From: an uncultured Lachnospiraceae bacterium
GTDB lineage: Bacteria; Bacillota; Clostridia; UBA1381
Assembly (NCBI GenBank): GCA_964422725.1
Contig: CAYRCC010000002.1
Coordinates: 28,694-92,693, forward strand
Direction: 5' to 3'
DNA: 64,000 bases
Under the pieces are notes generated by a model that saw nothing but the letters and a program-made list of their open reading frames with translations, ran no database searches and was not told where the DNA came from. A program made the translations under genes and the position numbers. Positions 1,614 to 20,091 of the stretch are shown in pieces. The number at the start of each line of letters is the position of its first letter. Positions within the stretch are counted from its first letter, which is position 1.

Positions 1614-2600
1614 TCAACTGTTATGAGCACATTTAACCATATCTCCGACTAAATCTTTATACATTTCTTCCAATATCTTTGTCGGTTTCCAGCCAAGCCG
1701 CCGCAGTTTATCCGAGGACAGCCTGAGTTCTGTTGCGGGTGCGTAACCATACCTTGCTGAATTTTCGGTTTCATATACAACACTGATTTTACCGTCTGCA
1801 AGCTTTTCCGCAACTAACTGTGCCATTTCGCGTATTCGCATTGTGTTTTCCTCGTTCACCACATTGTACACTTCACCGTTCTCCCCTTTATGCAATATAG
1901 TAAATATCGCATTTACAACATCTTCGGAAGCACAGTAGTTTCCCATCGACATTCCCAAAGTTCTGAGCACAATATCCTTGTTTTCAATCACCGCCCTTGC
2001 AAACTGTACAAAAACACGGTTATCCCCCTGCAAAACTCCCTTTCCGAAAGTCTGCGCAAGACGTGCAATTCTCACCGGAACTCCATACTCCTGACAGTAA
2101 ATATGGCAATAATGTTCAGCCATACGTTTTCCCATCGAATAACAGCTGCGCACCGAACTTAAATCAATACTTCCAAGCTGTTCTTCCGAACGTGCCGTTC
2201 CCGTATCTTCAACCAAACCATAAACCTCCATTGACGATACGTACACCATCGCTTTAACCTTCTTTGCTCTTGCAAACTCCAATACACTCTGTGTTCCCAA
2301 AACTATTCCGTTTGCCACCTCAACAGGCTTTTCAACCATTTCGGACGATTTGGTGACCGATGCGCAATGAATTATGTAATCTATATGGTTTTCAATATCG
2401 GCGCTGTTAATTTTTTCGACTGACGTATTTATAAATTCCAATCTTAAATTATCATATTCCGAATACATAAACTCCGCTTTCTTTATATCACGCACAGGCA
2501 ATATTATTCTTGCGTTTTCATATTCATCTAAAATCCTATCAACCAATAAATGTCCTATAAAACCGGTCGCGCCGGTAATCAAAAACACAGTATTATTCAT
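1614..2600 (-). CDS. NAD-dependent sugar epimerase/dehydratase (extended SDR)
   Basis: N-terminal LITGATGFIGHLL (GxxGxxG) and catalytic YSMGK (YxxxK). 328 aa. There is a 4-nt stop/start overlap with the upstream gene. Confidence 0.85.
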   Translation of the reverse strand: MNNTVFLITGATGFIGHLLVDRILDEYENARIILPVRDIKKAEFMYSEYDNLRLEFINTSVEKINSADIENHIDYIIHCASVTKSSEMVEKPVEVANGIVLGTQSVLEFARAKKVKAMVYVSSMEVYGLVEDTGTARSEEQLGSIDLSSVRSCYSMGKRMAEHYCHIYCQEYGVPVRIARLAQTFGKGVLQGDNRVFVQFARAVIENKDIVLRTLGMSMGNYCASEDVVNAIFTILHKGENGEVYNVVNEENTMRIREMAQLVAEKLADGKISVVYETENSARYGYAPATELRLSSDKLRRLGWKPTKILEEMYKDLVGDMVKCAHNS

Positions 2601-3817
2601 ATATGCTTTACCTCAATATTATCCCAGCCGTCTAACCCAAAAAAATCTATAACTTTCCACTTCGTATCACTGTAACAGCAATCGGGATACAAAGCCGTCT
2701 TTTTACATTCCGCCTCTTTTATAACATCACATACTCCGCTCCTAACACCTATAAAAGTCCCGGCATATTCAACCGCTGACTTCAGTTCATCTAACGGCAC
2801 TCTTAATTCGGCCGTTTCGGCAAGTGCCTCTTCTTCACCGGTTACATTGGTAAAAATTTTATATCCCATATTTTTATAATGAGAAATAATTTTAAACCAA
2901 ATATCCTTATCAATTCCGGCTACAGACTTTGAATAAGGTGCCAAAATAACAGTTTTTCCTTGGCTGATTATATCCAAACCGCGGAATTTTTTACAGGCTG
3001 TCGGTTTCTGCGGTACTGACTCTTTATCCAATCCATACACGCCATATTTATAAAAATCTTCAAACTTTATAAACTTAACCTTTAACGCCTGAATCATTTT
3101 ATTGGTATAGGGTCTGTCGTGATGAGCTATAAATGCATTTTTTTCATCAGTATACAGCACAGCCTGTACCAATTCGTCCATTTCATTTTGCAAAATCGTC
3201 ATTACATTCCCGACACCGAACATCTTGACAATTCTGCCGCACGCATTTCCTACGGCAATAACGGTGTAATCAAAAATATTGTTTTTATCCAAATAATATT
3301 TCAAATATGACATCGCATAGTATACATCACCCAACGCATTAAACGGACATAATATCAAAAAGCTGTTTTTATACTCTCGTTTTATACTTTCAAGCAGTGC
3401 AATTCCTCGTTTTACTCTCTTGTACTTTTTGTCAACTACATTCCGGGAAAGTGAATATTCCGAGAATGTATTGTATTCTACAACCTTTTCTATATCTCCT
3501 TTATAACCGATGTCGCTAAGCTGCTTCACCATTGCCGCATACGCTCTCGATGCAATACAGACAACAGACTGCTTGGAATTATCCGACATTACAGTCTGCG
3601 GCGGAACAATCGGAACACTTTCGTATGAACTGCCGTGTTTGGCTATGTTGTTGTCAAGTATGGCAACAGGAGTATAACCGTAAAACACAAGCATTTTCAC
3701 CAATTCCTCGGTAGCATTGCAGTGTCCGAAAAGATATATGCTTTTACCCGCAAACCCATTTTCGCGTATTAACGATTCAACATTAGTTTTCATTTCATCA
3801 TAGTGCTGTTTATCCAT
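2597..3817 (-). CDS. Putative glycosyltransferase with an N-terminal Rossmann-like module and a GT9-like (heptosyltransferase-like, GT-B) body. Paralog of 13675..15051.
   Basis: LCPFNALGDVYYAMSYL resembles the GT9 LGD motif. The C-terminal TVILAPYSKS...GYKIFTNV...AGTFIGVRSGVCDV parallels TVLVSPYAGH...GFTVCTNC...AGYFVGVRSGFCDL in the paralog. The family assignment is tentative. Confidence 0.55.
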   Translation of the reverse strand: MDKQHYDEMKTNVESLIRENGFAGKSIYLFGHCNATEELVKMLVFYGYTPVAILDNNIAKHGSSYESVPIVPPQTVMSDNSKQSVVCIASRAYAAMVKQLSDIGYKGDIEKVVEYNTFSEYSLSRNVVDKKYKRVKRGIALLESIKREYKNSFLILCPFNALGDVYYAMSYLKYYLDKNNIFDYTVIAVGNACGRIVKMFGVGNVMTILQNEMDELVQAVLYTDEKNAFIAHHDRPYTNKMIQALKVKFIKFEDFYKYGVYGLDKESVPQKPTACKKFRGLDIISQGKTVILAPYSKSVAGIDKDIWFKIISHYKNMGYKIFTNVTGEEEALAETAELRVPLDELKSAVEYAGTFIGVRSGVCDVIKEAECKKTALYPDCCYSDTKWKVIDFFGLDGWDNIEVKHI

Positions 3818-3820
3818 AAC

Positions 3821-4120
3821 TCACCCATTTATAACCAACTTTAACAGTTCATTACTGTTTATAATTTTCGTATTATACAAATTCCAAAGTCCGACAAAGC
3901 GACTTTCCGTTGCCGAAATGACAATAATTTTATCCGTAAATTCGTATAACGTATACAAACGTTTGATATCTTCATTATTTTCCTCAAACAGAATCAATAT
4001 GTCATCACCGACAAATTTGTCTTTTTTGCATACTTTGAACCATTTACAAACAACTTCATCAGTTAAAATAACTATTTTTCTGTATTTATTTACGCACAAT
4101 TCAATTTCGGATATATTCAT
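3821..4120 (-). CDS. Small hypothetical protein (99 aa), partner of the downstream GT9-like gene
   Basis: The ORF is tightly packed, with a 3-nt gap to the next gene. LILFEENNEDIKRLY resembles VLIFPENDEELINCI in the 146-aa ORF at 15051..15491. Confidence 0.5.
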   Translation of the reverse strand: MNISEIELCVNKYRKIVILTDEVVCKWFKVCKKDKFVGDDILILFEENNEDIKRLYTLYEFTDKIIVISATESRFVGLWNLYNTKIINSNELLKLVING

Positions 4121-4147
4121 ATTATAATGTTCCTTTTTAATTAACGC

Positions 4148-5036
4148 TTATTTCACAAATTCAAACACAATATAATCGCTTAATCCCTTTTCTTCCAAAT
4201 TCGCTTTCCATAATTCGTCCAAACCCTTTGATATAAAACTATACTCCTTATGTCTTCCGGGACACTTATTTTTCATCCAATAAACAAAATTACCCAATCC
4301 ATACCTCTGATAATACTTACAAACATAATTATCTATTCCGCAGAATTTCGCGATTACATCAAAACTCCCTTCACCAAGCACCCAAGGATGCTGAGTTGAA
4401 AACAGAAACGATTCATAATCACTTCCCAACAATTCACGCATAACAGGCGCATCGGTAGGCGTACCGATTATGGCTTTTCCCCCCTTTTTTAACAGCTCAT
4501 ATATTTCCCACACAAACAATTTCGGGTCTTGAATATGCTCAATTACATCAAACGAAACGATTACATCTATTTTACCTTTATAATCTTTTAATGCATCTCT
4601 TGAATAACTAAATACCCCCCCGATAACCTTTATTTTCCATTTCCGCTTTGTATGCATTTGACGGCTCAATCGCAATTATTTCTTTTGCCACAGTATTTAT
4701 ATAGTCCAAAAAAGCTCCGCCGCCGCAACCGACATCAGCCACTATTTTATTTCTGAAAATCTCTGTACCTGTAATTCTGAATTTATCCATACTTTCACTG
4801 TCATGCGCAGAATAAAATTTTTCTATTTCGGAGGTACCTTCCAATTTCTCTCTGTACTCTTTACTTTCGTAATAAGTCTTATAATCTTCTTCCAAGTCAA
4901 TATGCCATATCGTTTTACACTTATTGCATTGGTACATATTTACTTCTTCTTTATAATAATTTCCTACTTTTCCGTCACGTATTTTTCCTGTATACGTAAT
5001 TTTAGTATCTTGACTGTCACACAATTTACAATTCAT
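4148..5036 (-). pseudogene. Class I SAM-dependent methyltransferase with an N-terminal zinc ribbon, split into two ORFs by a +1 frameshift in a G7 tract
   Basis: ORF 4608..5054 carries CKLCDS...CNKC and the SAM motif VADVGCGGGAF. ORF 4148..4675 carries the post-I motifs DVIVSFDVIEHIQDP...LLKKGGKAIIG. The frames switch exactly at the C7 run at 4615-4621 (G7 on the coding strand). With G6 the reading would be ...ENKGYRGVFSYSRD... in one frame. Confidence 0.7.
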
Positions 5037-5062
5037 AATCATGCTCCTTTGCATTGTAAAAA

Positions 5063-6199
5063 TTATATACTGTCAGGCATGGCATACATTATTGTATCGC
5101 CCGACGAATACATATAATGCCTCAAATAGACCTTATAATTACATTTCAACAATTTAATAAAATTGTATAAAACCAATAAATCATCTTGCAAATGATATGC
5201 ACAAATTGCAAGAATCGGTTTATTTGCTTCAATTACGTCCCTCGCGCCCTCCAATGCATTTCGCTCCGCGCCTTCAATATCAAGCTTAATAAAACTTACT
5301 TTTGAACAAGCAATATCATCTATTTTTTCCGTTATAATACTCTTTTCCGCCACTGTTTCGTCATGCACTTGTCCCGACAGCCCTTGACCGCTAAATGAGA
5401 TATGTTTTCCGCTTTCATTCCACAATGCGGATTTATGCAATTGAACATTATGAGGTTTGTAATTGCTGATTTTTCCCTGTATTTTTTGATAATTCTTTTC
5501 TTCAGCCTCGTAACAATGCAAATTAAGAACAACGTCTTTCCCGAGCTCATTAATAAAATATTCAACCGTGTCACCATCAAACGCACCGCCGTCAACTATT
5601 ACACCATTTACAATATAACTTTTTGCATTTTCTGTCAGCACGTCATCATCTGTATATATTTTACTGCAAGATTTTATTTCTTTTAAATATCTTTTTTCTC
5701 TCGTTAATCTGTAATTCAAAATTCCTTCCAACGTATTTTTAGATACTTCGTCTGCCAATCCGCCATACAGCATTTCAAAAGCATCATAATTGTTACTAAT
5801 ATAATCATACTCTGATGACTCATATATCATATTGGTGGTTTCCCATGCCATACTCGTCAATAAATCATATGTTCTATTTAGCAGTTTATCGTCATATTCC
5901 TCTATTTGACATCGAATTTCTTCCATCCACATTGAAGCAATTACAATTGCAGCATCAGGATATTTCCCCATACATTCCTCAAAAGAATATACCATAACTC
6001 CTAATTTTTTCCGTCCTTGCTTTGCCGGATAATTATCCGCAAAACAATTCACTTTAATATTATACTTTTTCAGTATGTTAAATACATATTCGCCGCTCTG
6101 ACCCGCTCCAAATATAATTATATTAGGATATTTATTCAATTTTTTCAATATACCGTCGCCAATTATATTTTTTTCAAATTTATTAAATTCTAAATTCAT
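5063..6199 (-). CDS. FkbM-family methyltransferase with an N-terminal Rossmann-like module
   Basis: VDGGAFDGDTVEYF and FIKLDIEGAERNALEGA...PILAICAYH are FkbM signatures. The N-terminus reads IIIFGAGQSGEYVFNILKK...CFADNYPAKQG. The likely start is MNLEFNKF at 6199, after AAGGAA. The longer ORF to 6331 overlaps the upstream gene. Confidence 0.8.
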   Translation of the reverse strand: MNLEFNKFEKNIIGDGILKKLNKYPNIIIFGAGQSGEYVFNILKKYNIKVNCFADNYPAKQGRKKLGVMVYSFEECMGKYPDAAIVIASMWMEEIRCQIEEYDDKLLNRTYDLLTSMAWETTNMIYESSEYDYISNNYDAFEMLYGGLADEVSKNTLEGILNYRLTREKRYLKEIKSCSKIYTDDDVLTENAKSYIVNGVIVDGGAFDGDTVEYFINELGKDVVLNLHCYEAEEKNYQKIQGKISNYKPHNVQLHKSALWNESGKHISFSGQGLSGQVHDETVAEKSIITEKIDDIACSKVSFIKLDIEGAERNALEGARDVIEANKPILAICAYHLQDDLLVLYNFIKLLKCNYKVYLRHYMYSSGDTIMYAMPDSI

Positions 6200-6218
6200 A
6201 AAAAACATCATTCCTTGC

Positions 6219-7352
6219 CTATTTCCTATGTACAGCATACAAAACTGTTTCTGACTGTCCATATCTATATTGCCGTATATAATATTCATACGTTTTTGGC
6301 AATATTTCCTCAATAAGCAACGGAATATCAAAAAAGTCTTCCGGTTTATGATAAATACATATTGCCAATACGGGCTTATCTCGCTGTATAATCTGACGCG
6401 AACCTAATAATGCCTTATGCTCCGCTCCTTCTATATCCATTTTTATAAAACCTATTTTATTTTCATATATCAAATTATCCAATGAGTTGCATTGAACAAC
6501 GTTACCGTGATCACTAATTCTGCAGCCCTCGCCATTTCCAAAATTGTCTGTATCAAAATATAAACTTCCTTCTTTATCCCATACAGCATATTTTAAAGTA
6601 AGAATATTTTTATTGTCGATATTTTTAGCACATTCATTTAACCTAAAGTATGATTTCTCCGCTGCTTCTAAACAAATATATAAATCATTCCACTCCGGAA
6701 ACTTTTCAAAAAAAATGTTCATTGTATCACCGACATATGCACCGGCATCTACAAACGCACCCGACCAATTGCAATTTTTCAATATATCCATATCAAAATA
6801 TTGCTCTGTTTCTTCAGAAATATACTCCTTCATAGTATTCAGCCAAGCCATATCCTTAGATATTCTATAATTCAACAAATTTCTGAAAATCACTTTTGAC
6901 TTTTCATCAGCCAATATTTTGTAAACATTTGCAAAACTTTCATAATTATTTTTTATAAAAGCTAAATCTTCATTTGATTTCAAAGACATACCTGCCGGTT
7001 GAAAATAGTACAAATCATCTTTGCAAACTCCTTGTTTTTCTAACTGCAGTGATATTTCGTTATATGCTGTACTTGAAATTATAATTAAACAACCTAAATT
7101 ATCCTTTATTTTATCGGGAGAAATAACCGTAATACCCTCCCAACAACCTCCTATTTTTTCTTTACTGTTATCGCTATATGCAATTACCTTATCAAGCATA
7201 TTCGCTTTACGTAATATTTCCGCTGTTATCCTCCCACCGATTCCGGCACCAAAAATTATTACTTTCGCATACTTAGCTGCCTTTTCCAAAAGAGCCTTCT
7301 CATACTCTTCAGTACCATCATTCCAAACAATAAAATCCTTTAATTCTTCCAT
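6219..7352 (-). CDS. FkbM-family methyltransferase, tandem paralog of 5063..6199
   Basis: VDAGAYVGDTMNIF and FIKMDIEGAEHKALLGS...PVLAICIYH. The N-terminus reads VIIFGAGIGGRITAEILRK...AYSDNSKEKIG. The start MEELKDF at 7352 is preceded by AAGGAG with a 9-nt spacer. Confidence 0.8.
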   Translation of the reverse strand: MEELKDFIVWNDGTEEYEKALLEKAAKYAKVIIFGAGIGGRITAEILRKANMLDKVIAYSDNSKEKIGGCWEGITVISPDKIKDNLGCLIIISSTAYNEISLQLEKQGVCKDDLYYFQPAGMSLKSNEDLAFIKNNYESFANVYKILADEKSKVIFRNLLNYRISKDMAWLNTMKEYISEETEQYFDMDILKNCNWSGAFVDAGAYVGDTMNIFFEKFPEWNDLYICLEAAEKSYFRLNECAKNIDNKNILTLKYAVWDKEGSLYFDTDNFGNGEGCRISDHGNVVQCNSLDNLIYENKIGFIKMDIEGAEHKALLGSRQIIQRDKPVLAICIYHKPEDFFDIPLLIEEILPKTYEYYIRQYRYGQSETVLYAVHRK

Positions 7353-7365
7353 CAATATAAACTCC

Positions 7366-8016
7366 TTAAATATGCAGCACATTATCCGCTATTATGCGTG
7401 CAAATTCCAAATCTTCTTCCGTATCTATATCAACAGCCTCAATTTCTCCGACTTCCTGAATATACGGCTTAAATCCTATTCGCCGACCATACTTTTTCCA
7501 TAGTTCTTTTGAAAAAATAAAAAATCCGCTTGTTTCGGCATAAACAGGCTCTAAATCTTGCGTTTTCGGCACTTCCTCAATTTCATAATTTATCGGTTTT
7601 CCCTCAAACCAAGCAAATGTTTGCAGTTTTTTTGCAGTAAATGCGGAATCATATCCTTCATATAATACTTTGTGAAGCGCATTTTTAAGCGTTTCTTTCT
7701 TTATGAACGGCGCAGTCGTAAGCAATGCAATATATATATCCGCATCAACATCATTCAAAAATGCAGTATATGTATCCTTTGCTCTTATTTCGTCACCGTC
7801 AAGCCATTCTCCTCTTTTTAAGAAGTCAGCCCCATTCGGAATATATTCTTTAATTTTCTCGTTACTGCAATAAACTATAACCTCGTCAATTTCGTCAATA
7901 CCCAACGCCGTATCCAAGCAATGATAGCAAAGAGGTTTGTGTCCAAGCATCTGAATATTCTTATGCGGAACACGTACACTATTCATTTTTATCGTTGCAA
8001 ACGCTACTATCTTCAT
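7366..8016 (-). CDS. Cytidylyltransferase of the NeuA/KdsB superfamily; candidate CMP-Kdo or CMP-ulosonic acid synthetase
   Basis: The N-terminal KIVAFATIKMNSVRVPHKNIQMLGHKPLCYHCLDTAL matches the R-x-P-x-KN...GKPL motif of acylneuraminate/Kdo cytidylyltransferases. 216 aa. Confidence 0.75.
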   Translation of the reverse strand: MKIVAFATIKMNSVRVPHKNIQMLGHKPLCYHCLDTALGIDEIDEVIVYCSNEKIKEYIPNGADFLKRGEWLDGDEIRAKDTYTAFLNDVDADIYIALLTTAPFIKKETLKNALHKVLYEGYDSAFTAKKLQTFAWFEGKPINYEIEEVPKTQDLEPVYAETSGFFIFSKELWKKYGRRIGFKPYIQEVGEIEAVDIDTEEDLEFARIIADNVLHI

Positions 8017-8023
8017 AAATTCT

Positions 8024-8689
8024 TCACAACACTTTCATAATTTCATCTATACGTTCTTTATAATTTCTATCTCCGTTAAACAGAGCCGCCGTTCCCAAAA
8101 CAAAGTTCTTTACTCCGATTTTACTGAGTCTTTGTATTCGCTCTGTATTGCACGCACCATCCATACCAATTTCAAATTGATAATCCTCTTTCAATTCCAA
8201 CAATTTTTTGATTTTATTCTCCGCATACGGCAAATACATCTGACCGGCATTTCCGGGATTCACTCCCATAACCATAACTCGGTTTGTTACGTTCAGCAAC
8301 TCTACTATCGACTCAACAGATGTTCCGGGATTCAAAACTATACCCGCCTCAGCTCCAAACTCACCTATTTTTTGAAGGGTAGTTATCGCATGATACTCGG
8401 ATTCCGGATGTATATAAATTATATCCGCGCCGCAATCTATAAAAAGCTCAATATATTTCATAGGATTTTCTATCATCAAATGCACTTCGGTCTGCAATTT
8501 GGTCGTTTTGCAAATATATTTAATATCCTGTAAACCCATTCCGAAATTAGATACATATTGTCCGTCCATTATATCCAAATGCAATATATCAGCACCGGCA
8601 TCTTCTAATTTTCCGATTTCATTATGTAAATTACCGAAATCCGCGCACATCATTGACGGACAAAGATTAATATTTTTACAATTCATCAT
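8024..8689 (-). CDS. rpe: Ribulose-phosphate 3-epimerase family protein
   Basis: CPSMMCADFGNLHNEIGKLEDAGADILHLDIMDGQYVSNFGMG and VMGVNPGNAGQ are typical Rpe TIM-barrel motifs. Confidence 0.85.
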   Translation of the reverse strand: MMNCKNINLCPSMMCADFGNLHNEIGKLEDAGADILHLDIMDGQYVSNFGMGLQDIKYICKTTKLQTEVHLMIENPMKYIELFIDCGADIIYIHPESEYHAITTLQKIGEFGAEAGIVLNPGTSVESIVELLNVTNRVMVMGVNPGNAGQMYLPYAENKIKKLLELKEDYQFEIGMDGACNTERIQRLSKIGVKNFVLGTAALFNGDRNYKERIDEIMKVL

Positions 8690-12119: not shown

Positions 12120-13478
12120 TCAAAACAATTTATCAAAATCCACTCTTTCAAAAGCCTCAAGCTTACCGCCGCGTGTAGCGTTATATATTCTAAAACCGTG
12201 CCTTCTTGAATATATTTCCGCCATTTCATATGCTTTTTCCGTTTTTTTGTTAGCTAATACACTGTCAAAATTTTTAAGCACTCTTTTTTCTTGTTCCGAA
12301 TAATAATTCTTCAAAAAATGATTTCTATCGTCCGTCACATTGCCAACAGTCGAATTATCAACACCTATTAAATATATTTCACTAAATCCCATATATGCCG
12401 CAACTTGCAAGCCCACATCATAAGTCACTGTATATCCCCAACAAACCCCATTACATATATTATCCGAGAACCCGGGGTAATTAGGCCAATATTCTTGCAT
12501 CTTTAAATGAATATGATTAACATTATCATTATAATAATTATTTAGTCCGTCACAAAAAACATCGCCAATAAAAATATCCGCACTGATACTATTAATATCA
12601 TTACAACAGTTAGACAGCATACACGCATCTGTTATTGCAAAATAATTTGCTCGCCAACCGGTTTTATTATATATCTGATAGATTTTATTAAATCCAAAGC
12701 ATATTTCATTGTGCTTATGTAATGTTTCCAAATCCTCTATTCTTAAGCTGGGTCCGTTTCCTACGAGAAACACTCTTTCACCTTTATGAATATTTTTAAA
12801 CTTCTTTAGCTGCGGATAATAAAATGACTTTTCAAACTTATCCGAATCATAAATATCAATCAAATCAAACGAATGTGCTCTCTGCGCAATTCTATCACGA
12901 ATATCACTTTCAGTACGTGCCGTATTTATAATCAAACAATCTATTTCACCGTAAATATCATCTAAAGCGACACATTGAATATCAACACAAGGATTACAAT
13001 CATCATTTTCGGATATTATTCCTTTAATACAGCTTATATCTCCCGTCTGTATTGCTATTTCCGATATAAGATACTGCATGTAATTATTTGTACCATATAT
13101 AGCTATTTTCTTATATTTCTTCACCGAATTATCGCTTAAAACTTTAGTATATGATACAGTTTCTGCTTTTCCGTATAAATTATACCATGGTAATACATCA
13201 TTAATCTTCCATATATCTTCTTCTCGAAAAATGAAATATCTATAAATACCCGCACCTTTTAATTGTTCTTCCATTTCTATATGATATTTTTCTGATGTTA
13301 TAACTACTATATAGTTCTCATTGTATACAGCTTGAAATTGAGAAAAGCTGATTATGTCTTTCATTTCCAATTCATTTCCGAAACGATTGTTATCTACAAA
13401 ACATTTTACCCGCTCATATCCTAAAAACCATAGAGCCTTTTTCCCCATTTCTCCTGCACCGAATAATATATATTGCAT
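12120..13478 (-). CDS. DUF115/MptE-like (Maf- and GT42-sialyltransferase-like) putative CMP-ulosonic-acid transferase with an N-terminal Rossmann-like module
   Basis: RVFLVGNGPSLRIEDL...ICFGFN parallels the GNGPSL motif of Maf and CstII-type transferases. GLQVAAYMGFSEIYLIGVD parallels CstII AIALGYKEIYLSGID. The N-terminus reads ILFGAGEMGKKALWFLG...CFVDNN. The ATG at 13478 follows GGAGAAG. The track ORF begins at a TTG at 13511. Confidence 0.65.
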   Translation of the reverse strand: MQYILFGAGEMGKKALWFLGYERVKCFVDNNRFGNELEMKDIISFSQFQAVYNENYIVVITSEKYHIEMEEQLKGAGIYRYFIFREEDIWKINDVLPWYNLYGKAETVSYTKVLSDNSVKKYKKIAIYGTNNYMQYLISEIAIQTGDISCIKGIISENDDCNPCVDIQCVALDDIYGEIDCLIINTARTESDIRDRIAQRAHSFDLIDIYDSDKFEKSFYYPQLKKFKNIHKGERVFLVGNGPSLRIEDLETLHKHNEICFGFNKIYQIYNKTGWRANYFAITDACMLSNCCNDINSISADIFIGDVFCDGLNNYYNDNVNHIHLKMQEYWPNYPGFSDNICNGVCWGYTVTYDVGLQVAAYMGFSEIYLIGVDNSTVGNVTDDRNHFLKNYYSEQEKRVLKNFDSVLANKKTEKAYEMAEIYSRRHGFRIYNATRGGKLEAFERVDFDKLF

Positions 13479-13674
13479 TTCATCTTCTCCATATAAATTA
13501 TCAAATTTCAAACCATAACATTCGTAATTGCATTAATATCATTCCAAACCAATACGTCCACTTCTTCTAAGTCGGCGTATTTTGCTTAACTTCTTTCGGC
13601 ATAATTACCGTTTTCCACTGAAAACACCGAACGATAGTGTCTTGATGCTAATCAACCATTTACCGCAAAAATAA

Positions 13675-15051
13675 TTATTTTTCCTCAACCAGCTTTTCTA
13701 AAATCTCGTCCATAAATTCATCTTTATGATTACAATCATTCACAAGCTCAATCATATTTTTCCCCAATCCCATATTTTCAAATCCGAAAGTTTCTATTGA
13801 CCCTGTGACCGAACCTGTTTCATATAATACTATTTTTTTGCAGTCGGCATTGCAAAGCAAATCGCAGAAACCACTTCTCACTCCGACAAAATATCCTGCC
13901 GTTTCCGCAAATTCAACACAGTCCTGAATTTCTATAAACGGTGCTGCGGTATTATCAAGCGGCGGTTCGCCCGGTCCGCCGCAATTTGTACATACCGTAA
14001 ATCCCATATCTTGCAGTTTTTTAACAAAATAATTCCAATTTTCCTCTTGCAAGTCAATGCTGAAATGTCCCGCATAAGGTGAAACAAGTACTGTTTTGCC
14101 GGGTATTAAATCATACTTTTCAAATAATTCTCTGACATATTCGGTTCTTTTCGGAAAAGTCGGATATATAGGCTCCATTTTCTTTTCAAATTCAAATACG
14201 TAATCAAAAGTATCTCTAAAATTGATATTTGAATGTTCATACATTGTCACATAAAAATTACATTCACCATGATAAACTGCATTTCTAACATTAATTTTAT
14301 CTCCCATCGCTTTAAGCATAGTAAGCCAATTTATGTGTGCATCTTCAAACGTAATTAATTCGATATGCTTAAATCCTAAAGCCTCTGCCAAACGCTTAAC
14401 GGAATTTTTGGTAACCACAAGCACGCAGTCACATTCAGCCACGCTCTTTACGCCCATTTTATGCGGTAATAAACATGCGAAAATATATAAATCACCAATA
14501 CTTGTAGGGTGCATTAACCAAATAGGAATATGTCCGTATTTTTCGTCAATTTTGATATATGACTTGTATCCCTTTGAAATTAGCTTTCTGATATTTCTCC
14601 AGTTTTTACCTTGAAATATTATGCCCTGTTTTGCCTTTTTAAGTTCGTTTCTTGTATTTCTTCTGCCACCGAAAAGAACAAAAAAGTCCTTATCTTTTTT
14701 TAATCCTAAACCTGATAATTGTATTTCAAATTCTTGCCAGCAGAAATTGTTAATCACCAAAATTACAATATCCTTTTCCTCGGCAAGACTCTCTACCGAC
14801 TGTGATATTATTCCTACTCGCGAAACATTTTGTTTTTGTTCATTGTTATCGGCAATAATACTTATGCTCAATCCCAATTTTTCAATAATTTCTCTGACTT
14901 CATAAGCATTTCCCCATACTCCGACAATCGCAATCCTCTTATTTTCAAATACTTTTTTTTCTTTTAATTTTTTAATTTCAAAATATAAATTTTTAAAATA
15001 TTCTTCTCTTCCTTTAAGCCATCTAATATCAAATTTCTTGTTTTTGTTCAT
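13675..15051 (-). CDS. Putative GT9-like glycosyltransferase with an N-terminal Rossmann-like module. Paralog of 2597..3817.
   Basis: IAIVGVWGNAYEVREIIEKLG...IADNNEQKQN, then LMHPTSIGDLYIFACLL, then TVLVSPYAGH...FVGVRSGFCDLL. The domain order matches the 406-aa paralog. Confidence 0.55.
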   Translation of the reverse strand: MNKNKKFDIRWLKGREEYFKNLYFEIKKLKEKKVFENKRIAIVGVWGNAYEVREIIEKLGLSISIIADNNEQKQNVSRVGIISQSVESLAEEKDIVILVINNFCWQEFEIQLSGLGLKKDKDFFVLFGGRRNTRNELKKAKQGIIFQGKNWRNIRKLISKGYKSYIKIDEKYGHIPIWLMHPTSIGDLYIFACLLPHKMGVKSVAECDCVLVVTKNSVKRLAEALGFKHIELITFEDAHINWLTMLKAMGDKINVRNAVYHGECNFYVTMYEHSNINFRDTFDYVFEFEKKMEPIYPTFPKRTEYVRELFEKYDLIPGKTVLVSPYAGHFSIDLQEENWNYFVKKLQDMGFTVCTNCGGPGEPPLDNTAAPFIEIQDCVEFAETAGYFVGVRSGFCDLLCNADCKKIVLYETGSVTGSIETFGFENMGLGKNMIELVNDCNHKDEFMDEILEKLVEEK

Positions 15052-15491
15052 TATTTTACTTTTCCAACCTCGCCCAATAAATAATTATACACTATTTTGT
15101 CCATGGTAATATTTTTCAAGCCAACAACTTGTTCTTTGACATATTTTGCATTCCCCGACAATGATACCTTAAATGACATAATTTTCAACATAGGCGACAT
15201 TAATATATAAGCGTAACGAGTAATGCTGTCTACTTCTTCAGCAGTCAACTCAATCGTTTGATACGGCAATTTTGTATACCCGTCAAAGCTTGGCAGTTTA
15301 AAACTTGAAATAATCGTAATAAAACTATACCTTTTTTCCAATACATACATATATTTCAAAATACAGTTTATTAACTCCTCATCGTTTTCGGGAAAAATCA
15401 GCACAACCTCATTATCAACCTTTTTGATCAGACTTTCAAGCGTTTTTTTGCCTTTATTAATAATTTCAATACGCTCGTTAAATTCTTTCAT
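15051..15491 (-). CDS. Small hypothetical protein (146 aa), partner of the downstream GT9-like gene
   Basis: Its stop overlaps the start of 13675..15051 by 1 nt. It shows weak similarity to the ORF at 3821..4120. Confidence 0.5.
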   Translation of the reverse strand: MKEFNERIEIINKGKKTLESLIKKVDNEVVLIFPENDEELINCILKYMYVLEKRYSFITIISSFKLPSFDGYTKLPYQTIELTAEEVDSITRYAYILMSPMLKIMSFKVSLSGNAKYVKEQVVGLKNITMDKIVYNYLLGEVGKVK

Positions 15492-15511: not shown

Positions 15512-16093
15512 TTATCCTTTCAAAACTTCACCGATATGACCACCCGGGTGATTTCTCTTAAACTGACCAATCTCCAATTTCATCTTATTTGCAACCATCA
15601 TCGCCAGACCCTGCAGCACAATCAAATTCATCGTGGTTGAATTATTCGGCATAATGTTCCACAAATCCCCCTCGTGAATTAAATCTATAACCAAGCTGTT
15701 AGGTATCTCTCTTGCCAGCGTGCTTTCTTTTTCAAATGTCAAAAGCCACATATCAACATTTCTTTCTTTAAGCAGCCGCGCAAGATACACCGACTCTGAT
15801 GTTTCTCCGCTCTTGGTCAGAATTATTACCATATCACCGTCCTTGACAAGACCCATATCGCCGTGTACCGCCGAATTGGTATGCAGAAAATACGCATCAA
15901 GTCCCATAGACACCATAGAACCCACAAATTTATCACAAATCGGAACGTTTTTTCCCAATCCCGAAACTATTATTTTATGCCCCGATTTAATAGTTGCCAC
16001 TGCGTGTTCTACCATTTTTTCAAAAATATCTTCATCAACCGAATTTAACGAATGTGTTATTTCAGCCAACTGTTTTTCAAAATAACTTATCAT
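15512..16093 (-). CDS. SIS-domain sugar-phosphate isomerase, KpsF/GutQ type (arabinose-5-phosphate isomerase-like), lacking CBS domains
   Basis: IIVSGLGKNVPICDKFVGSMVSMGL...NSAVHGDMGLVKDGDMVIILTKSGETSE matches the KpsF pattern G-x-GKS...HGDLG...SxSGE. Confidence 0.75.
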   Translation of the reverse strand: MISYFEKQLAEITHSLNSVDEDIFEKMVEHAVATIKSGHKIIVSGLGKNVPICDKFVGSMVSMGLDAYFLHTNSAVHGDMGLVKDGDMVIILTKSGETSESVYLARLLKERNVDMWLLTFEKESTLAREIPNSLVIDLIHEGDLWNIMPNNSTTMNLIVLQGLAMMVANKMKLEIGQFKRNHPGGHIGEVLKG

Positions 16094-17595
16094 AGTACTT
16101 CCTCCAAATAATATAATCCATTATAAAATGCACCGCATATGCTGTCATAGTCCTGCCAAGCATATGTGGTAAGCGACAGCCATATTACGGCATGCAGCAG
16201 TTTTATTTCATTTGCATCTGTATCGGTCAACTCAAAAAAGTCTTTCTCCATATCTTCCCAATTATTTGACTCAATTTGGATATCTGCGCCGTTATCGGTT
16301 ATTTCCAATCGAAACTTTTTCAAATTGAACCTGTCATAATTTCCCACTACCGAGTAATAAAGCTTTGCCCAATCGTATCTTTCATCGCCGTACAATTCGG
16401 TAAAGCCAAAATATCCCCTCGGGTCTATCAATACAGGGTCACCGTTTTTTCTTATCATCAAATTTGAAAATGTACAATCACCATGTATAAAGCTGAAGCT
16501 TTCGCATTTTAACTGTTCAAGTTTTTTCTCCAATTCAGATTTGTAATAAAAAACATTTCTGCACTTTCTGCCGTTCACCGTAACATACCGGTCGTTTGCA
16601 AACGGCACCAAATCCCTTATTTTCGACAGTCTGTCCATGGTTTTGTTAAAATATGCCTCGTGCATACTAAACGTGTCCGCCGGAACGCTTTCCGAAGAGT
16701 GCAACAGCTTTAGTGCGTCAACTAATTTTCTTAAAACACCTTTTTTGGTTTCATAGTCAAGCTGACATTCATATATATTCTCGCCCTTAATATACTCCAT
16801 TTTCAATGGATTTGTATCGTATATCTTCGGCAATATACCTATATTTAGTTCCCTTGCCTTTTCATACCATACACACTCACGTTTTGCAAGTGTTCTGCCC
16901 TGCGAATCCACAGGCTCTTTTATGAGTACATCTCCGTCAACGGTTATTCGGTTAAACGGCCGACACTTTTGTGTTGTCAGCTTTTCATATTCCTCAATAA
17001 GTCCAAACTCTCTTGTACCGGCAAGCGAAATCGCCTTGTACTTCATACCTTGCTGCTGCATCCAGCGCACAAGTTCACCGCTTTGCGGTACATCTGCAAT
17101 TTTGCTTTTATCGGAAAACAGGAAAAATCCGGCAACACCATGTTTGCACGATTTTTCCTCAACAAACTCGCCGTCGTAATAGCTCCATCTGCAAGGAAAT
17201 GTAGTCGATATTCCTATGTAATCGTTTTCTGCGCTGTATTCTCCGTCATACTCATTCGGCAGTTTAAAGTCAGCCGGAAGTATTAAGTCTGACCACACAA
17301 GCATAAACGATTTATTCTCCGGAATCAAATCTATCGCTTGCTTTACTCCCGAACAAGTTCCCGTTCCGTCCGCATCCACTACCTGATACTTGACATCAGC
17401 AAAACAACTTAAATATTCACGCAAAACTTCCTTTTTATAATCAGCTATTATTACAAATTTTTTGTCAGAATACTTCCTGAACAAATGAAATATCATAGGC
17501 AAATTTTCTATCGGTACAAGTGCCTTGGGTTTATTCTTGGTTAAATAGCCCAATCTTGTCCCTTTACCGCCCGCCTGCACCACTATATAATCCAT
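16090..17595 (-). CDS. Fusion protein: N-terminal sugar-phosphate nucleotidyltransferase and C-terminal APH/choline-kinase-like phosphotransferase
   Basis: IVVQAGGKGTRLGYLTKNKPKALVPI is the NTP-transferase G-loop. FIHGDCTFSNLMIRKNGDPVLIDPRG is the kinase catalytic loop (HxDxxxxN...D). Confidence 0.7.
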   Translation of the reverse strand: MDYIVVQAGGKGTRLGYLTKNKPKALVPIENLPMIFHLFRKYSDKKFVIIADYKKEVLREYLSCFADVKYQVVDADGTGTCSGVKQAIDLIPENKSFMLVWSDLILPADFKLPNEYDGEYSAENDYIGISTTFPCRWSYYDGEFVEEKSCKHGVAGFFLFSDKSKIADVPQSGELVRWMQQQGMKYKAISLAGTREFGLIEEYEKLTTQKCRPFNRITVDGDVLIKEPVDSQGRTLAKRECVWYEKARELNIGILPKIYDTNPLKMEYIKGENIYECQLDYETKKGVLRKLVDALKLLHSSESVPADTFSMHEAYFNKTMDRLSKIRDLVPFANDRYVTVNGRKCRNVFYYKSELEKKLEQLKCESFSFIHGDCTFSNLMIRKNGDPVLIDPRGYFGFTELYGDERYDWAKLYYSVVGNYDRFNLKKFRLEITDNGADIQIESNNWEDMEKDFFELTDTDANEIKLLHAVIWLSLTTYAWQDYDSICGAFYNGLYYLEEVL

Positions 17596-17600: not shown

Positions 17601-18935
17601 TTACTCTCCCTCAATCATTTCAATGTTTTGTATCATAATCGGTTTGCCTGTATGCTTGTACAGCTCCATAACACTGCTCCAATCGCCGTAATACACATCG
17701 CTCAGCGTTATAGCTCTGTACAGCTCTGCCGTATCATCAAAAATGCCTGTTTTATCTTTTTTATATTCTTCAACAATATTTCTGTATTCCTCAAGCAGTG
17801 CCGGCCGCATAGACTCCAGCGTACTATCCAGCAACGGATGCGGACGCCACAGCAAAACCACGTCTTTATCCTTTTTAAATACCGAAATAACATTTTTGAT
17901 TTTTCTTATTACATCTTCTGTATTTCTAAGCATCGCAACTACCGTTGTATTATACAATATTACTTTTTTTCTGCTGCCGTCCGCTCTGACTATCAAACTG
18001 TCCCACTCCGACGGTATTTCAAAATCCTCAAGTTTTGAATTTTTCACCTTATCAAATTTCGGACTTCCGAGTGCTAAAAACTTTTTCTCAACATCACCAA
18101 ACATACCGCGGCAATTATTTTTATTTTCAAATTTGCGAAATTCACTTATATATTTCTTTCGCACTTTTTCAGACTGTACAATAACCTTATCTGCATACAT
18201 TGTCCCCGGAAGAACGCAAAAATGCTCCTCCAACTCATCGTTAATCGCAACAAAATACGGAATATATATCAATTCATCAGTATATTTTTTCAGTTCACTC
18301 GCGTAAAATTTGGGGTGAATGCTTGTAACATAATTTTGGTCATCATAAGGATTATGTATGTAAATTATGTCAGGCCGTCTTTCTTCTATATTGTATTCTT
18401 TCCATGACACTATCGGCACATCAGGCGGATACTCGTATCCTTCATAGTGCATTCTGAGCGGTTTACCGTCAGATCCTCGGTCAAAGTACGGTATCGGAAC
18501 AACATATGCATCGCAATTTTCATCTTCATTTGCTTTTTTCCACACACTTTCAAGGCTGTCCCACATAGAGGCTTTATACGGCAAAAACACAACTTCAAGC
18601 CGAGCTTTGATATCATTTTTAATGCTGTTTTCAGCCTGTATCATTTTTGAGTTCAAATTTTTATACGCCTTATCTGCCGTCATTCCCGTATCAATACCTT
18701 GATATACCGAAAAAATCTCATCACAGTACTCCTCCAAACAGTGTACCGGCAAACAATTCTCACCCTCAAATTCCTCTATCATACCACCCATTTGCACTGC
18801 CGTATTCTGACATTCCGCAAGCATTGCACGCGCATTTTCAAATTCACTCTTTTTTATATGTCTTTTTATTGTATCATGCGCTTTATATAATGTACTGACT
18901 ATTTCCAATAAGCTTTGTTTCTGCGCTTTTCTCAT
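17601..18935 (-). CDS. CDP-glycerol/ribitol glycerophosphotransferase-like (TagB/TagF family) protein
   Basis: The C-terminal half (KVILYNTT...VVLLWRPHPLL...GDWSSVMELYKHTGKPIMI) parallels TagF motifs (ILYAPT, KPHP, DYSS...PII). Confidence 0.6.
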   Translation of the reverse strand: MRKAQKQSLLEIVSTLYKAHDTIKRHIKKSEFENARAMLAECQNTAVQMGGMIEEFEGENCLPVHCLEEYCDEIFSVYQGIDTGMTADKAYKNLNSKMIQAENSIKNDIKARLEVVFLPYKASMWDSLESVWKKANEDENCDAYVVPIPYFDRGSDGKPLRMHYEGYEYPPDVPIVSWKEYNIEERRPDIIYIHNPYDDQNYVTSIHPKFYASELKKYTDELIYIPYFVAINDELEEHFCVLPGTMYADKVIVQSEKVRKKYISEFRKFENKNNCRGMFGDVEKKFLALGSPKFDKVKNSKLEDFEIPSEWDSLIVRADGSRKKVILYNTTVVAMLRNTEDVIRKIKNVISVFKKDKDVVLLWRPHPLLDSTLESMRPALLEEYRNIVEEYKKDKTGIFDDTAELYRAITLSDVYYGDWSSVMELYKHTGKPIMIQNIEMIEGE

Positions 18936-18960
18936 ACCACATTCCTCTACTTACTTATGA

Positions 18961-19677
18961 TTAAATTCCAAAAACCTGCTGATTTTCTATTGCATCATAC
19001 AACGCTCTGTAAATATAATAATCTGCCGGCTCTGTAATTTTTATATTATTTCTCGTGCTTTTCACAAGATGCATCGGCTCATTATATATATGACACAAAT
19101 GCGATGAATCTATTGTCTTTATCCCCTCATTCTGCGCCTTTTCATATAAATTGAATATTCTGCCGTAATAAAACGACTGCGGCGCTTTGGCAACAAACAT
19201 CTGTTCCCTCGGCGGAACGTCAACAATAACCTCAGCATTATCCGACCGCACAACGCTCTCTCTTACTTTTTCCGACGTAATTGCATTTCCGAATTTTCTG
19301 ACAGAGCTGATATTTTCCAAAATCAGTTCCTCGTTTATCAACGGTCTTACGCCGTCGTGAATAAGAACAATATCGTCATCACTCACAAATTTCTTCATTG
19401 CTACCAAACCGTTATAAATAGAATCGTGTCCCGTTTCACCCCCTGGCACTATATCCACAACTTTTTGTATATCGTAGCGTTTTAAATATCCCCTCAATTC
19501 CGCTATCCAATTTTTAATGCAAATAACTACTATATTATCTACCTCAGCGCAATACTCAAAATGTTCTAAAGTATATATAATAATCGGTTTGCCGTGCATT
19601 TCCAAAAACTGCTTAGGTCTGGACCTCGAATTCATTCTCGTCCCCGTACCGCCCGCAAATATCAACGCTGTTACCAT
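18961..19677 (-). CDS. IspD/TarI-family cytidylyltransferase (CDP-polyol or CDP-sugar-phosphate synthase)
   Basis: ALIFAGGTGTRMNSRSRPKQFLEMHGKPIIIYTLEHF and IHDGVRPL. The ATG at 19677 is preceded by AAGGGG. Confidence 0.8.
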   Translation of the reverse strand: MVTALIFAGGTGTRMNSRSRPKQFLEMHGKPIIIYTLEHFEYCAEVDNIVVICIKNWIAELRGYLKRYDIQKVVDIVPGGETGHDSIYNGLVAMKKFVSDDDIVLIHDGVRPLINEELILENISSVRKFGNAITSEKVRESVVRSDNAEVIVDVPPREQMFVAKAPQSFYYGRIFNLYEKAQNEGIKTIDSSHLCHIYNEPMHLVKSTRNNIKITEPADYYIYRALYDAIENQQVFGI

Positions 19678-19704
19678 TATAACGCCCCTTATCAATTTTA
19701 TCTG

Positions 19705-20091
19705 TTATAATTTTTTATCTATAACAATCTCCCTTTTCACAAAACAATCTCGCTCACCGTCAATTGCCACTGCCATTTTCAAGCCGGACGGCTTGTTATC
19801 ATTCATCAAAATCCTTTCGCCGTACGGCGCACCGTAAATAATATTGTTATATCTTATTGAATTATCAGCCAAAAATTTCTCCGTCATTTTACTGTATTCT
19901 TCTGTTCTTGACGTTAGAAATATAATCATATCGCTTTCCGGAATACTTTCAAGGAACTCTTTTGCACCGTTCAAAAGCGAATCCGACCCGTCAATTTTAT
20001 ATCCGTTGTGCTTTACTATTGTACCGTCCAAATCCAATATCCACGTATGCCCCAACGACGACAATACTAATTTTTCTTCTTTCATAGCCAC
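19705..20091 (-). CDS. Small HAD-superfamily phosphatase-like protein; first gene of the island
   Basis: WILDLDGTIVKHNG (DxDGT motif I), FLTSR (motif II). 128 aa. Confidence 0.6.
   Translation of the reverse strand: MAMKEEKLVLSSLGHTWILDLDGTIVKHNGYKIDGSDSLLNGAKEFLESIPESDMIIFLTSRTEEYSKMTEKFLADNSIRYNNIIYGAPYGERILMNDNKPSGLKMAVAIDGERDCFVKREIVIDKKL

Follow-up and report, generated by a model that had tools for sequence, protein, structure and literature searches.

A strain-variable, membrane-free gene island with a putative Kdo pathway and a Maf-like transferase in a Lachnospiraceae genome

Introduction

[quoted passage not shown] Here, we describe a block of 20 genes at positions 1614-20091 of a stretch of DNA from an uncultured Lachnospiraceae bacterium (NCBI GenBank assembly GCA_964422725.1, contig CAYRCC010000002.1, positions 28,694 to 92,693; these 64,000 nucleotides are called the window in the following) in which a predicted pathway to activated Kdo is found next to a Maf-like glycosyltransferase. 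With a probability of roughly 0.6 we regard this block as a Maf-type glycosylation island, variable between strains and free of membrane proteins, that uses Kdo or a close derivative instead of pseudaminic or legionaminic acid. That it is a Kdo-type glycan island outside of LPS synthesis is considered highly probable, and with moderate confidence its acceptor is expected to be a protein, most likely flagellin.

The closest described systems are the Maf flagellin islands of Campylobacter, Helicobacter, Aeromonas, Clostridium botulinum and Geobacillus. They have in common with the island described here a transferase of the DUF115/Maf fold, a pathway to a 2-keto-3-deoxy acid activated with cytidine monophosphate (CMP), methyltransferases and the lack of membrane or export genes, and homologous islands are located beside the genes of flagellin, FlaG and FliD. 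In contrast, the window encodes KdsA (from the DAHP_synth_1 family) with KdsC, Rpe and an isomerase where those islands contain NeuB, PseI or LegI together with enzymes modifying UDP- or GDP-linked N-acetylglucosamine (GlcNAc), and an eight-carbon sugar without amino groups is predicted. Moreover, the island is not situated beside flagellar genes, and its Maf-like protein is too remote from characterised Maf enzymes for a sequence search of the PDB. It is best filed as a locus sharing the logic and the transferase fold of Maf-type islands, the sugar pathway being what differs and what is new.

Maf proteins of C. botulinum and Geobacillus kaustophilus transfer Kdo from CMP-Kdo to Ser/Thr residues of flagellin in Escherichia coli (bioRxiv 10.1101/2020.06.03.131540; PMC11339370; noted in bioRxiv 10.1101/2023.12.03.569772). 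This Ser/Thr-O-Kdo is a side reaction with an LPS precursor in a host where the native donor is missing (bioRxiv 10.1101/2020.06.03.131540; PMC11339370), whereas in the window the genes of the Kdo pathway belong to the island itself, and this pathway presumably supplies the native donor. The canonical CMP-Kdo pathway comprises KdsD, KdsA, KdsC and KdsB, followed by WaaA or KpsS/KpsC. The island shares with it KdsA, KdsC and a SIS protein resembling arabinose-5-phosphate isomerases, but a KdsB-type synthetase is missing, the SIS protein lacks CBS domains, the syntenic partners of KdsA are a PMI-like cupin and Rpe, and in the scanned ORFs of the window neither a GT30-type WaaA nor KpsS/KpsC nor lipid A genes are present.

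Kdo gene islands in Gram-positive bacteria have been noted once in the searchable literature, namely in Bacillus coahuilensis m2-6 (PMC4744853). That island is likewise of low GC content and strain-specific and was read as horizontally acquired, but it is capsule-like with kdsB, kdsD, kpsC, membrane proteins and insertion sequence (IS) elements, whereas the window island combines a NeuA-like cytidylyltransferase with a Maf-like transferase and is free of membrane proteins and IS elements. Our literature search on naturally occurring Kdo in flagellin glycosylation islands and on kdsA of Lachnospiraceae retrieved only this report and the papers on Maf promiscuity. The type A flagellin modification locus CD0240-CD0244 of Clostridioides difficile, which includes the TagF-like gene CD0244, is also soluble, and its nucleotidyltransferase, methyltransferase and TagF-like protein add a phospho-linked group to the flagellin glycan (PMC4441256); it has however no ulosonic acid pathway and no Maf protein, and its first sugar is GlcNAc. 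Finally, the ADP/GDP-heptose pathway with GT9 transferases (including TibC) follows a similar logic of SIS isomerase, kinase plus nucleotidyltransferase, HAD phosphatase, short-chain dehydrogenase/reductase (SDR) and GT9-fold transferases. However, the SIS protein of the island is KpsF-like and not GmhA-like, its kinase is APH-type and not HldE/HddA-type, and no Pfam match to GT9 is obtained. The heptose-like logic is taken as an analogy only.

KdsA and the steps to an activated sugar

The key enzyme of the island is KdsA (g12; for gene numbers and positions see Table 1). It reaches 379.7 bits with NF003543 (cut-off 242) and 375.7 bits with TIGR01362 (cut-off 314), and its best solved match is Kdo-8-phosphate synthase (KDO8PS) of Aquifex aeolicus, aligned over the full length (272.8 bits, E 2.4e-80). 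The invariant residues binding the metal, phosphoenolpyruvate (PEP) and arabinose-5-phosphate are C11, H185, E222, D233, K41, K46, N48, R49, S/T50, R106, K124 and R154, and the protein belongs to the Cys-containing, metal-dependent class. Judged by these features of its sequence it is a bona fide Kdo-8-phosphate synthase.

The further steps can be assigned with differing precision. Phosphatase g10 stays under the equivalog cut-offs of KdsC (NF007019, 158.6 bits, cut-off 208) and of Kdn-9-phosphate phosphatase (133 bits, cut-off 180), and its putative assignment to KdsC is made at the family level only. The epimerase g9 exceeds the Rpe subfamily cut-off (NF004076, 182.6 bits, cut-off 165) and with 198.1 bits is slightly under that of TIGR01163 (212.6). 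For g8 the original prediction, which was made from the DNA letters alone, had proposed a cytidylyltransferase of the NeuA/KdsB superfamily. The protein is indeed NeuA/PseF-like (65 bits with PseF; nearest solved structure CMP-Neu5Ac synthetase, 1QWJ) and is no KdsB, given 19-27 bits with KdsB models that have cut-offs of 155-281. Its homologs (48-75% identity) adjoin KdsA in most of the 80 related loci described below, and g8 probably acts as synthetase of CMP-Kdo or a Kdo-like sugar. Genes g8 to g12 sit immediately downstream of the Maf-like gene g14. Thus, the canonical CMP-Kdo pathway is matched partly, namely in KdsA and KdsC but not in KdsB, with an ambiguous KdsD. The positions originally given for Rpe, the SIS protein, KdsA, the KdsC-like phosphatase and the cytidylyltransferase all coincide with ORFs (open reading frames) that have matching Pfam or NCBIfam assignments.

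KdsA relatives and the isomerase step

A survey with one genome per species yielded 80 loci with KdsA proteins of 52-82% identity (numbered, like further related loci, with the prefix L). The majority of these closest relatives (62/80) are from monoderm or unassigned lineages, including Lachnospiraceae (e.g., Kineothrix, Otoolea, Roseburia, Blautia, Dorea and Acetatifactor) and other Clostridia as well as Paenibacillus and Coriobacteriia. In the neighbour-joining tree KdsA of the window falls into a small clade A with L002-L009 (L093 is counted with this clade in the following) that is sister to a large clade B dominated by Firmicutes. Because of this position it is not a recent capture of an LPS gene. 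The loci are of two kinds. In the first, which is often the setting of clade-B modules, KdsA is found amid proteins with 8-12 transmembrane (TM) segments, as is expected for polysaccharide loci; the second comprises islands that resemble the window in that all products are soluble and Maf-like, FkbM, radical-SAM and GT2 proteins are encoded. The arrangement does not stand alone: Kdo modules are frequently found in Lachnospiraceae and further monoderm lineages, and the use of Kdo outside of LPS looks widespread among them. In the cultured Lachnospiraceae member Otoolea muris DSM 111138 two clade-A modules are present (L006 and L008), with the module order Maf-like – KdsA – PMI-like – Rpe – CTP_transf_3 – FkbM – methyltransferase.

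Two proteins compete for the formation of arabinose-5-phosphate. The first is the cupin g11, which matches the PMI of Bacillus subtilis (1QWR, E 4.5e-37) and has kept the motifs QVHPDD, ESW and GTLHA, read from the sequence as putative metal-binding motifs. The second is g17, which the original prediction had called a KpsF-type SIS isomerase. It does have a SIS domain resembling the N-terminal half of KpsF/KdsD, and its nearest solved structures are the single-domain arabinose-5-phosphate isomerases 5UQI and 3ETN and the SIS domain of KdsD (2XHZ). However, it has no CBS domains and with 99 bits it stays far from the KpsF cut-off of 203.7. In addition, its homolog is located beside a homolog of g18 in every related locus (L027, L074, L082, L085, L087, L089, L094, L101), several of which are devoid of KdsA, i.e. 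g17 co-varies with g18 and not with KdsA. A GmhA/heptose identity of g17 was rejected at the sequence level, as the matches are of KpsF/API type and no GmhA match was obtained.

PMI-like, KdsC and Rpe genes always follow clade-A KdsA. In 7 of the 8 clade-A genome loci (exception L007) a KdsD-type SIS protein is missing, whereas it is present in 63 of the 72 loci without a PMI-like gene (Fisher p = 2.6e-5). Locus L093 is composed of CTP_transf_3 – KdsA (68% identity) – PMI-like (40%) – Rpe – KdsC and also has no SIS gene. From this co-occurrence we infer that g11 is the pathway isomerase of clade-A KdsA. The C2 configuration that a PMI-type isomerase establishes in mannose-6-phosphate is also the one required in arabinose-5-phosphate, and a sequence of reactions from Rpe via the cupin to KdsA is therefore coherent as a putative KdsD-independent route to Kdo-8-phosphate. 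The claim that every step from pentose phosphate to activated Kdo is encoded thus is plausible, with an ambiguity between g11 and g17 in the isomerase assignment.

A Maf-like transferase in a soluble island

Sequence searches of the PDB with the transferase candidates g14 and g15 gave nothing meaningful, and for this reason their folds were compared. The AlphaFold2 model of g14 (pLDDT 93) has a single significant PDB match, the Maf protein of Magnetospirillum (5MU5, E 1.4e-5), with a low global TM-score due to the multidomain architecture of g14. Together with the match to PF01973 (Table 1) this bears out the Maf-like (MptE-like/DUF115) transferase originally proposed, and g14 is the probable Kdo transferase of the island.

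None of the 21 ORFs of the island contains a 19-residue hydropathy window above 1.6, and hence flippases, polymerases, ABC permeases and polyprenyl-phosphate transferases are all missing in it. Similarly, of 50 metagenomic loci that span at least 12 kb and encode a relative of g14, 39 (78%) are free of ORFs with six or more TM segments. This membrane-free layout is the design of a cytoplasmic protein glycosylation system and not that of a polysaccharide locus.

Nearly all genes of the window island have homologs in flagellar-locus islands on metagenome contigs of other Clostridia. In L082 the order is flagellin – GT2/TPR – SDR – fused g19 and g13 – TarI – g18 – g16 – g15 (54% identity) – g17 – g21 – Maf – CTP_transf_3 – HMGL-like – ... 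– g2-like – FlaG – FliD. In L089-L091, an organism found in 117 collection blocks, it is flagellin – g19-like – g18 – g17 (77%) – g13-like – Maf – Maf – methyltransferase – TylF – CTP_transf_3 – HMGL-like – KdsC-like – g2-like – Rpe – TarI – TarJ, with a g14 homolog of 45% identity. Two further loci (L152, L157) have 3' fragments of flagellin at the contig edge beside such islands, and other relatives adjoin defence or mobile genes (L002, L093, L094). The main difference is that the sister islands possess an HMGL-like protein of the DRE-TIM aldolase family where the window has KdsA and the PMI-like cupin. It is encoded between CTP_transf_3 and the KdsC-like gene (L082, 15418-16464; L089, 13793-15424; L094, 13805-15436; also in L096, L101, L139 and L146), which suggests that it is an alternative, undescribed ulosonic-acid synthase. 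The likeness to flagellin or S-layer nonulosonic-acid islands stressed in the original prediction thus stands with respect to the Maf fold, the soluble design and the flagellin-adjacent homologs; the window itself has no flagellin gene.

Weighing of the readings

Several points weigh against an island that glycosylates a protein with Kdo. Searches with B. subtilis Hag and with flagellin, FlaG and FliD sequences detected no flagellin or other flagellar gene in the 64-kb window, and none at a distance of up to 10 kb from KdsA in the 80 genome loci (0/80; positive controls worked). Flagellin adjacency is seen in just four distinct related islands (L082, L089-L091, L152, L157), all of them with the HMGL-like protein and without KdsA. 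Upstream of the island no SigD-type promoter was detected, the three SigD-type matches in the window all being elsewhere and at chance level. One of the methyltransferases is broken by the only frameshift of the island, in an AT-rich gene. The cytidylyltransferase g8 fails every KdsB model, and the distinctive L7 loop of clade-A KdsA, together with the unusual Rpe-like and PMI-like partners, could mean a sugar different from Kdo. Clade-B KdsA genes amid multi-TM proteins suggest that monoderms use Kdo also for purposes other than protein glycosylation. Furthermore, Maf-domain enzymes can also act on glycan acceptors, for example in the S-layer glycan of Tannerella forsythia.

The strongest competing explanation, which we judge rather unlikely, is a cell-wall glycopolymer of Kdo and ribitol phosphate (teichoic-acid-like, a secondary cell-wall polymer or a capsule); the Maf-like enzyme would then act on a lipid-linked or polymer acceptor, with priming and export encoded elsewhere. 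It would account for the TagF-like and TarI-like genes, which are typical of wall teichoic acid, and for the absence of flagellin from the window and the surroundings of the 80 KdsA genes. Many clade-B loci of Lachnospiraceae, Paenibacillus and Clostridia are embedded in 8-12-TM proteins as in Wzx/Wzy-type loci, and even one clade-A module (L009, Flavonifractor) is flanked by TM proteins. The module of KdsA, CTP_transf_3 and Maf-like protein is also found in metagenome-assembled genomes (MAGs) labelled Muribaculaceae, Blautia, Dorea and Coriobacteriia, taxa that are taken as non-motile, and the window has an SLH protein and, 26 kb apart, a cluster with a Wzx-like flippase. Yet no island ORF has a TM segment (0/21), and TagO- or WbaP-type primers, TagA/TagB, a TagGH exporter, Wzx/Wzy and LCP proteins are absent from the island. 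The islands most alike gene for gene are the flagellin-adjacent ones, and the related Maf-like loci are membrane-free in 78% of cases too. TagF-like genes, moreover, occur also in flagellin modification loci (PMC4441256).

A second alternative concerns the identity of the sugar: the Rpe-like and PMI-like enzymes would supply another aldose phosphate (e.g., mannose-6-phosphate or altrose-6-phosphate) and the synthase would form a Kdn-like nine-carbon 3-deoxy-ulosonic acid. We regard this as improbable. Clade A always has the PMI-like and Rpe-like genes, usually without a KdsD-type SIS protein, and its substrate-closing L7 loop ISGGGENFGNSGKRE (SGG-E-N-F-GNSGKR, corresponding to residues 190-200 in A. 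aeolicus) is clade-specific and one residue longer. This loop is the only active-site-proximal difference between the clades, the remaining active-site residues being invariant. However, all known residues binding arabinose-5-phosphate and its phosphate are kept, and KdsA exceeds both KDO8PS equivalog cut-offs. The epimerase g9 scores nearly as well with the model of allulose-6-phosphate 3-epimerase AlsE (178.8 bits) as with TIGR01163 (198.1 bits), but fails the AlsE cut-off while passing that of the Rpe subfamily. A match of g10 to the Kdn-9-phosphate phosphatase model (133 bits), the NeuA/PseF-like nature of the cytidylyltransferase and the exchange of KdsA for an HMGL-like aldolase in the sister islands, by which the synthase step appears evolutionarily plastic, could also be brought forward. 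Against this stands the established stereochemistry: Rpe followed by an isomerase forming the C2-"manno" configuration is exactly the route from xylulose-5-phosphate to arabinose-5-phosphate.

That the Kdo genes serve LPS in a diderm Firmicute host or are a decaying, non-functional acquisition is very improbable: some g14 homologs are annotated from Selenomonadaceae, one KdsA relative is from Phascolarctobacterium and one methyltransferase is frameshifted, but KdsA is nested in a Lachnospiraceae-dominated clade, 20 of the 21 ORFs are intact and tightly packed between promoter-like and terminator-like sites, and the sole frameshift is in a homopolymer of seven G. The named relatives of IlvD from the window are MAGs of Clostridia/Eubacteriales, CdaA/CdaR, DUF5711 and SLH proteins are encoded, and the scanned ORFs of the window lack GT30/WaaA, Lpx, KdsB, BamA and Lpt domains. 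To the extent that these genes show it, the host does not belong to a diderm lineage. The classical LPS reading was rejected on the basis of host affiliation and of the gene content of the window, and the scanned ORFs agree with the original description of a monoderm, Clostridia-like window lacking WaaA and lpx genes.

The Maf-type island with Kdo or a close derivative as its sugar thus remains our preferred reading. The proposal that a (methylated) Kdo takes the place of a sialic-acid-like sugar is, as far as sequence evidence reaches, carried by KdsA, the Maf fold, the lack of membrane proteins and the flagellin-adjacent homologs; its target is a deduction, and details had to be revised.

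Extent and composition of the island

According to the ORF listing and the translations, 21 successive ORFs are found in the island, all on the minus strand, which correspond to 20 genes since 4148-4675 and 4608-5054 are the halves of a single class-I methyltransferase. Intergenic spacing ranges from -4 to +48 nt, save for the one gap of 196 nt, which possibly contains an internal promoter; larger ORF overlaps are an artefact of choosing the most upstream start codon. The GC content is 35.9% in the island and 43.4% in 20092-64000, with means of 0.359 and 0.434 in 1-kb windows (Mann-Whitney p = 4e-8), and at third codon positions (GC3) 0.35 is opposed to 0.47 outside (p = 1e-6). The tight packing of 20 minus-strand genes with a single large gap, as well as their AT-richness compared with the flanks, had been recognized in the original prediction and are borne out by intergenic distances, the windowed GC profile and the check at the codon level.

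Over 20404-26456 the window shares 95% identity with a contig of a sibling sample, which diverges exactly at the end of the AraC gene and has a MarR gene in the place of the island. As this close relative has no island at 20404, the segment is variable between close relatives. A search for marks of mobile elements at the island (integrase, tRNA, flanking repeats) gave nothing convincing.

The split methyltransferase g4/g5 is due to a frameshift in a run of seven G. Removal of one G restores an ORF of 301 amino acids that is colinear with the orthologs of L002 and L005, which are intact. Either an assembly error or a slippage site for phase variation could account for the frameshift; homopolymer slippage sites are known from flagellin glycosylation genes of Campylobacter.

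Further transferases and the second module

The GT9-like protein g15 and its paralog g2 (24% identity over the full length, E 2e-21) belong to a family without annotation, and a Pfam/NCBIfam scan of both gave zero matches, including Glyco_transf_9. The AlphaFold model of g15, built from 32 homologs (pLDDT 90.5), has as top Foldseek matches the GT9 protein of Veillonella (3TOV), WaaC, TibC and WaaF (E 5e-7 to 1e-4, TM-score on the target 0.39-0.56). Thus, of the two GT9-like proteins proposed originally the identity holds at the level of the fold, through the g15 model, and sequence families give no support. Homologs of g2 (45% identity) are present in the flagellin-adjacent islands L082 and L089. 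GT9-like proteins are always accompanied by a small upstream partner without family match (120-160 amino acids in the relatives L082, L085 and L089), and g2, g6, g7, g14 and g15 appear to have a common N-terminal Rossmann-type domain (C2185-like_N). The three methyltransferases anticipated from the sequence are two FkbM proteins (g6, conserved in L002-L008, and g7) and the class-I enzyme g4/g5, and the TagF-like enzyme was also recovered (g19).

Homologs of g19 (44-47% identity) are encoded directly after flagellin in L089 and, in fusion with a g13-like domain, in L082; for g13 itself a Logan gene call of 364 amino acids puts the start near 12070. The motif DLDGT of g21 is read from the sequence as possibly HAD-like, and homologs with 57-69% identity are found in L027, L074 and L082. 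Six proteins (g2, g3, g13, g15, g16, g21) have no family match. Five island genes had not been used in the original prediction, namely the cupin g11, g18, the TarI-like g20, g21 and the SDR g1, which reaches none of the NCBIfam equivalog cut-offs. A TarJ reductase is, like the Tag primers and the exporter, not encoded in the island. In L085 (19636-21362), L089 (18044-20588) and L094 (18055-20667) a TarJ-like zinc-dependent alcohol dehydrogenase gene is contiguous with Rpe and TarI, by sequence a complete putative route to CDP-ribitol. With Rpe and TarI in the window but no TarJ-like gene, g1 may substitute for TarJ.

Table 1. Genes and other features of the island and its borders (window coordinates)
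Feature	Gene	Position	Strand	Basis or remark
Terminator-like hairpin with T-run		1605-1590	-	directly past last island gene
Extended SDR, NAD-dependent epimerase/dehydratase/reductase	g1	1614-2600	-	Pfam Epimerase 3e-37
GT9-like GT-B glycosyltransferase, paralog of g15, N-terminal Rossmann domain	g2	2597-3817	-	from paralogy
Small protein of unknown function	g3	3821-4120	-	99 aa, upstream of g2; faint similarity to g16
Class-I S-adenosylmethionine (SAM) methyltransferase, split	g4/g5	4148-5054	-	frameshift in G7 run 4615-4621
FkbM-family methyltransferase, N-terminal Rossmann domain	g6	5063-6331	-	TIGR01444 50.8 bits, cut-off 37.7
FkbM-family methyltransferase	g7	6219-7382	-	TIGR01444 65.3 bits, cut-off 37.7
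CTP_transf_3 cytidylyltransferase	g8	7366-8016	-	Pfam 66 bits; NeuA/PseF-like
Ribulose-phosphate 3-epimerase family, Rpe	g9	8024-8689	-	Pfam 8.5e-53
KdsC-family ulosonate-phosphate phosphatase	g10	8691-9191	-	TIGR01670 153.1 bits, cut-off 106.95
PMI-type-I-like cupin aldose-ketose isomerase	g11	9196-10089	-	Pfam PMI_typeI_cat
KdsA, metal-dependent KDO8P synthase	g12	10109-10927	-	NF003543 and TIGR01362 equivalog cut-offs passed
Unknown soluble protein	g13	10976-12229	-	homologs fused to TagF-like protein in L082
Maf-like (DUF115/MptE-like) glycosyltransferase, C2185-like N-terminal domain	g14	12120-13478	-	PF01973 35.8 bits, cut-off 34.6
Sole large intergenic gap		13479-13674	-	196 nt
GT9-like GT-B glycosyltransferase, unannotated family	g15	13675-15051	-	fold match; Pfam none
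Small unknown protein	g16	15051-15491	-	146 aa; always upstream of g15 homologs
Single-SIS-domain sugar-phosphate isomerase	g17	15512-16093	-	99 bits with KpsF/GutQ, restricted to the N-terminal half
Fused nucleotidyltransferase and APH-type kinase	g18	16090-17595	-	profile matches
TagF-like CDP-alcohol phosphotransferase	g19	17601-18935	-	PF04464 31.5 bits, cut-off 22.1
TarI-like D-ribitol-5-phosphate cytidylyltransferase	g20	18961-19695	-	NF001183 182.7 bits, cut-off 166
Small protein, DLDGT motif	g21	19705-20091	-	co-varies with g17/g18; family match none
Sigma-70-like promoter, extended -10		20277-20249	-	upstream of first island gene
Right junction of variable segment		20404		95%-identical relative diverges at this point

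Proposed function

In the mechanism proposed here xylulose-5-phosphate would be converted to ribulose-5-phosphate by Rpe (g9) and further to arabinose-5-phosphate by the cupin g11 and/or the SIS protein g17. KdsA would condense arabinose-5-phosphate with PEP to Kdo-8-phosphate, g10 would release Kdo and g8 would convert it to the CMP-activated sugar. The Maf-like g14 is then predicted to transfer the sugar to Ser/Thr of a cytoplasmic protein, most likely flagellin prior to its export and less likely to a glycan acceptor, and the sugar would be O-methylated by the FkbM proteins g6 and g7 and by the currently frameshifted class-I enzyme g4/g5.

By the second module the glycan is probably elongated, namely by another sugar and by a polyol or sugar linked through phosphate. 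Here g15 and g2 would act with their small partners g16 and g3, and g17, g18 and g21 could make another activated donor. The TarI-like g20 would supply CDP-ribitol, from which g19 and g13 would add a group of the ribitol-phosphate type, and g1 would act as epimerase or reductase. The whole island may represent one combination from a pool of interchangeable modules circulating among gut Clostridia.

A more far-reaching scenario is tentative. It supposes native O-methylated Kdo on flagellin or another exported protein of gut Clostridia, formed independently of KdsD by a distinct KdsA clade that is supplied by the cupin and a dedicated Rpe, with the cupin as a new, non-homologous family of arabinose-5-phosphate isomerases; sister islands with the HMGL-like protein would produce further ulosonic acids not described so far, and all of them would belong to a modular "ulosonic-acid toolkit" with which monoderms glycosylate proteins.

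Other genes of the window

Beyond the island, a c-di-GMP-I riboswitch (40209-40289, 64.9 bits) is located directly upstream of the gene for a protein of 723 amino acids with SLH and DUF7305 domains (40364-42535). A separate second glycan cluster (42666-48196) encodes a GT2 protein, two unknown proteins, a CapD/Polysacc_synt_C-type epimerase and the Wzx-like flippase (546 amino acids), and adjoins an AraC regulator and FtsW/RodA. The regions 21355-26417 and 50875-54795 contain GH88 and two family-11 rhamnogalacturonan lyases (1325 and 1306 amino acids), each near an AraC regulator, and point to a pectin-degrading gut organism. On the minus strand at 1-790 a gene of a RimO/MiaB-type methylthiotransferase is cut off by the left end of the window, and the plus-strand ORF 110-637 is probably spurious.

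Implications

To our knowledge, Ser/Thr-O-Kdo has so far been encountered only where Maf enzymes were expressed in Gram-negative hosts, as the product of a side reaction. If true, a Kdo pathway dedicated to a Maf-type transferase in monoderm gut Clostridia would be the natural counterpart of this side reaction and would extend the chemistry of bacterial protein glycosylation. Flagellins of Lachnospiraceae are dominant gut antigens and ligands of TLR5, and an acidic methylated glycan on them could alter immune recognition. Testable enzyme functions are nominated for three groups of proteins, namely the PMI-like cupin, the aldolase of the HMGL-like type, and the GT9-like family, which lacks annotation, together with its small partners. 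Monoderm lineages contribute most of the closest relatives of this KdsA, and for this reason metagenomic counts of kdsA and kdsC are no measure of "LPS potential". The finding is not confined to the genome of the window and points to a use of Kdo that is widespread in monoderm gut bacteria and has not been described.

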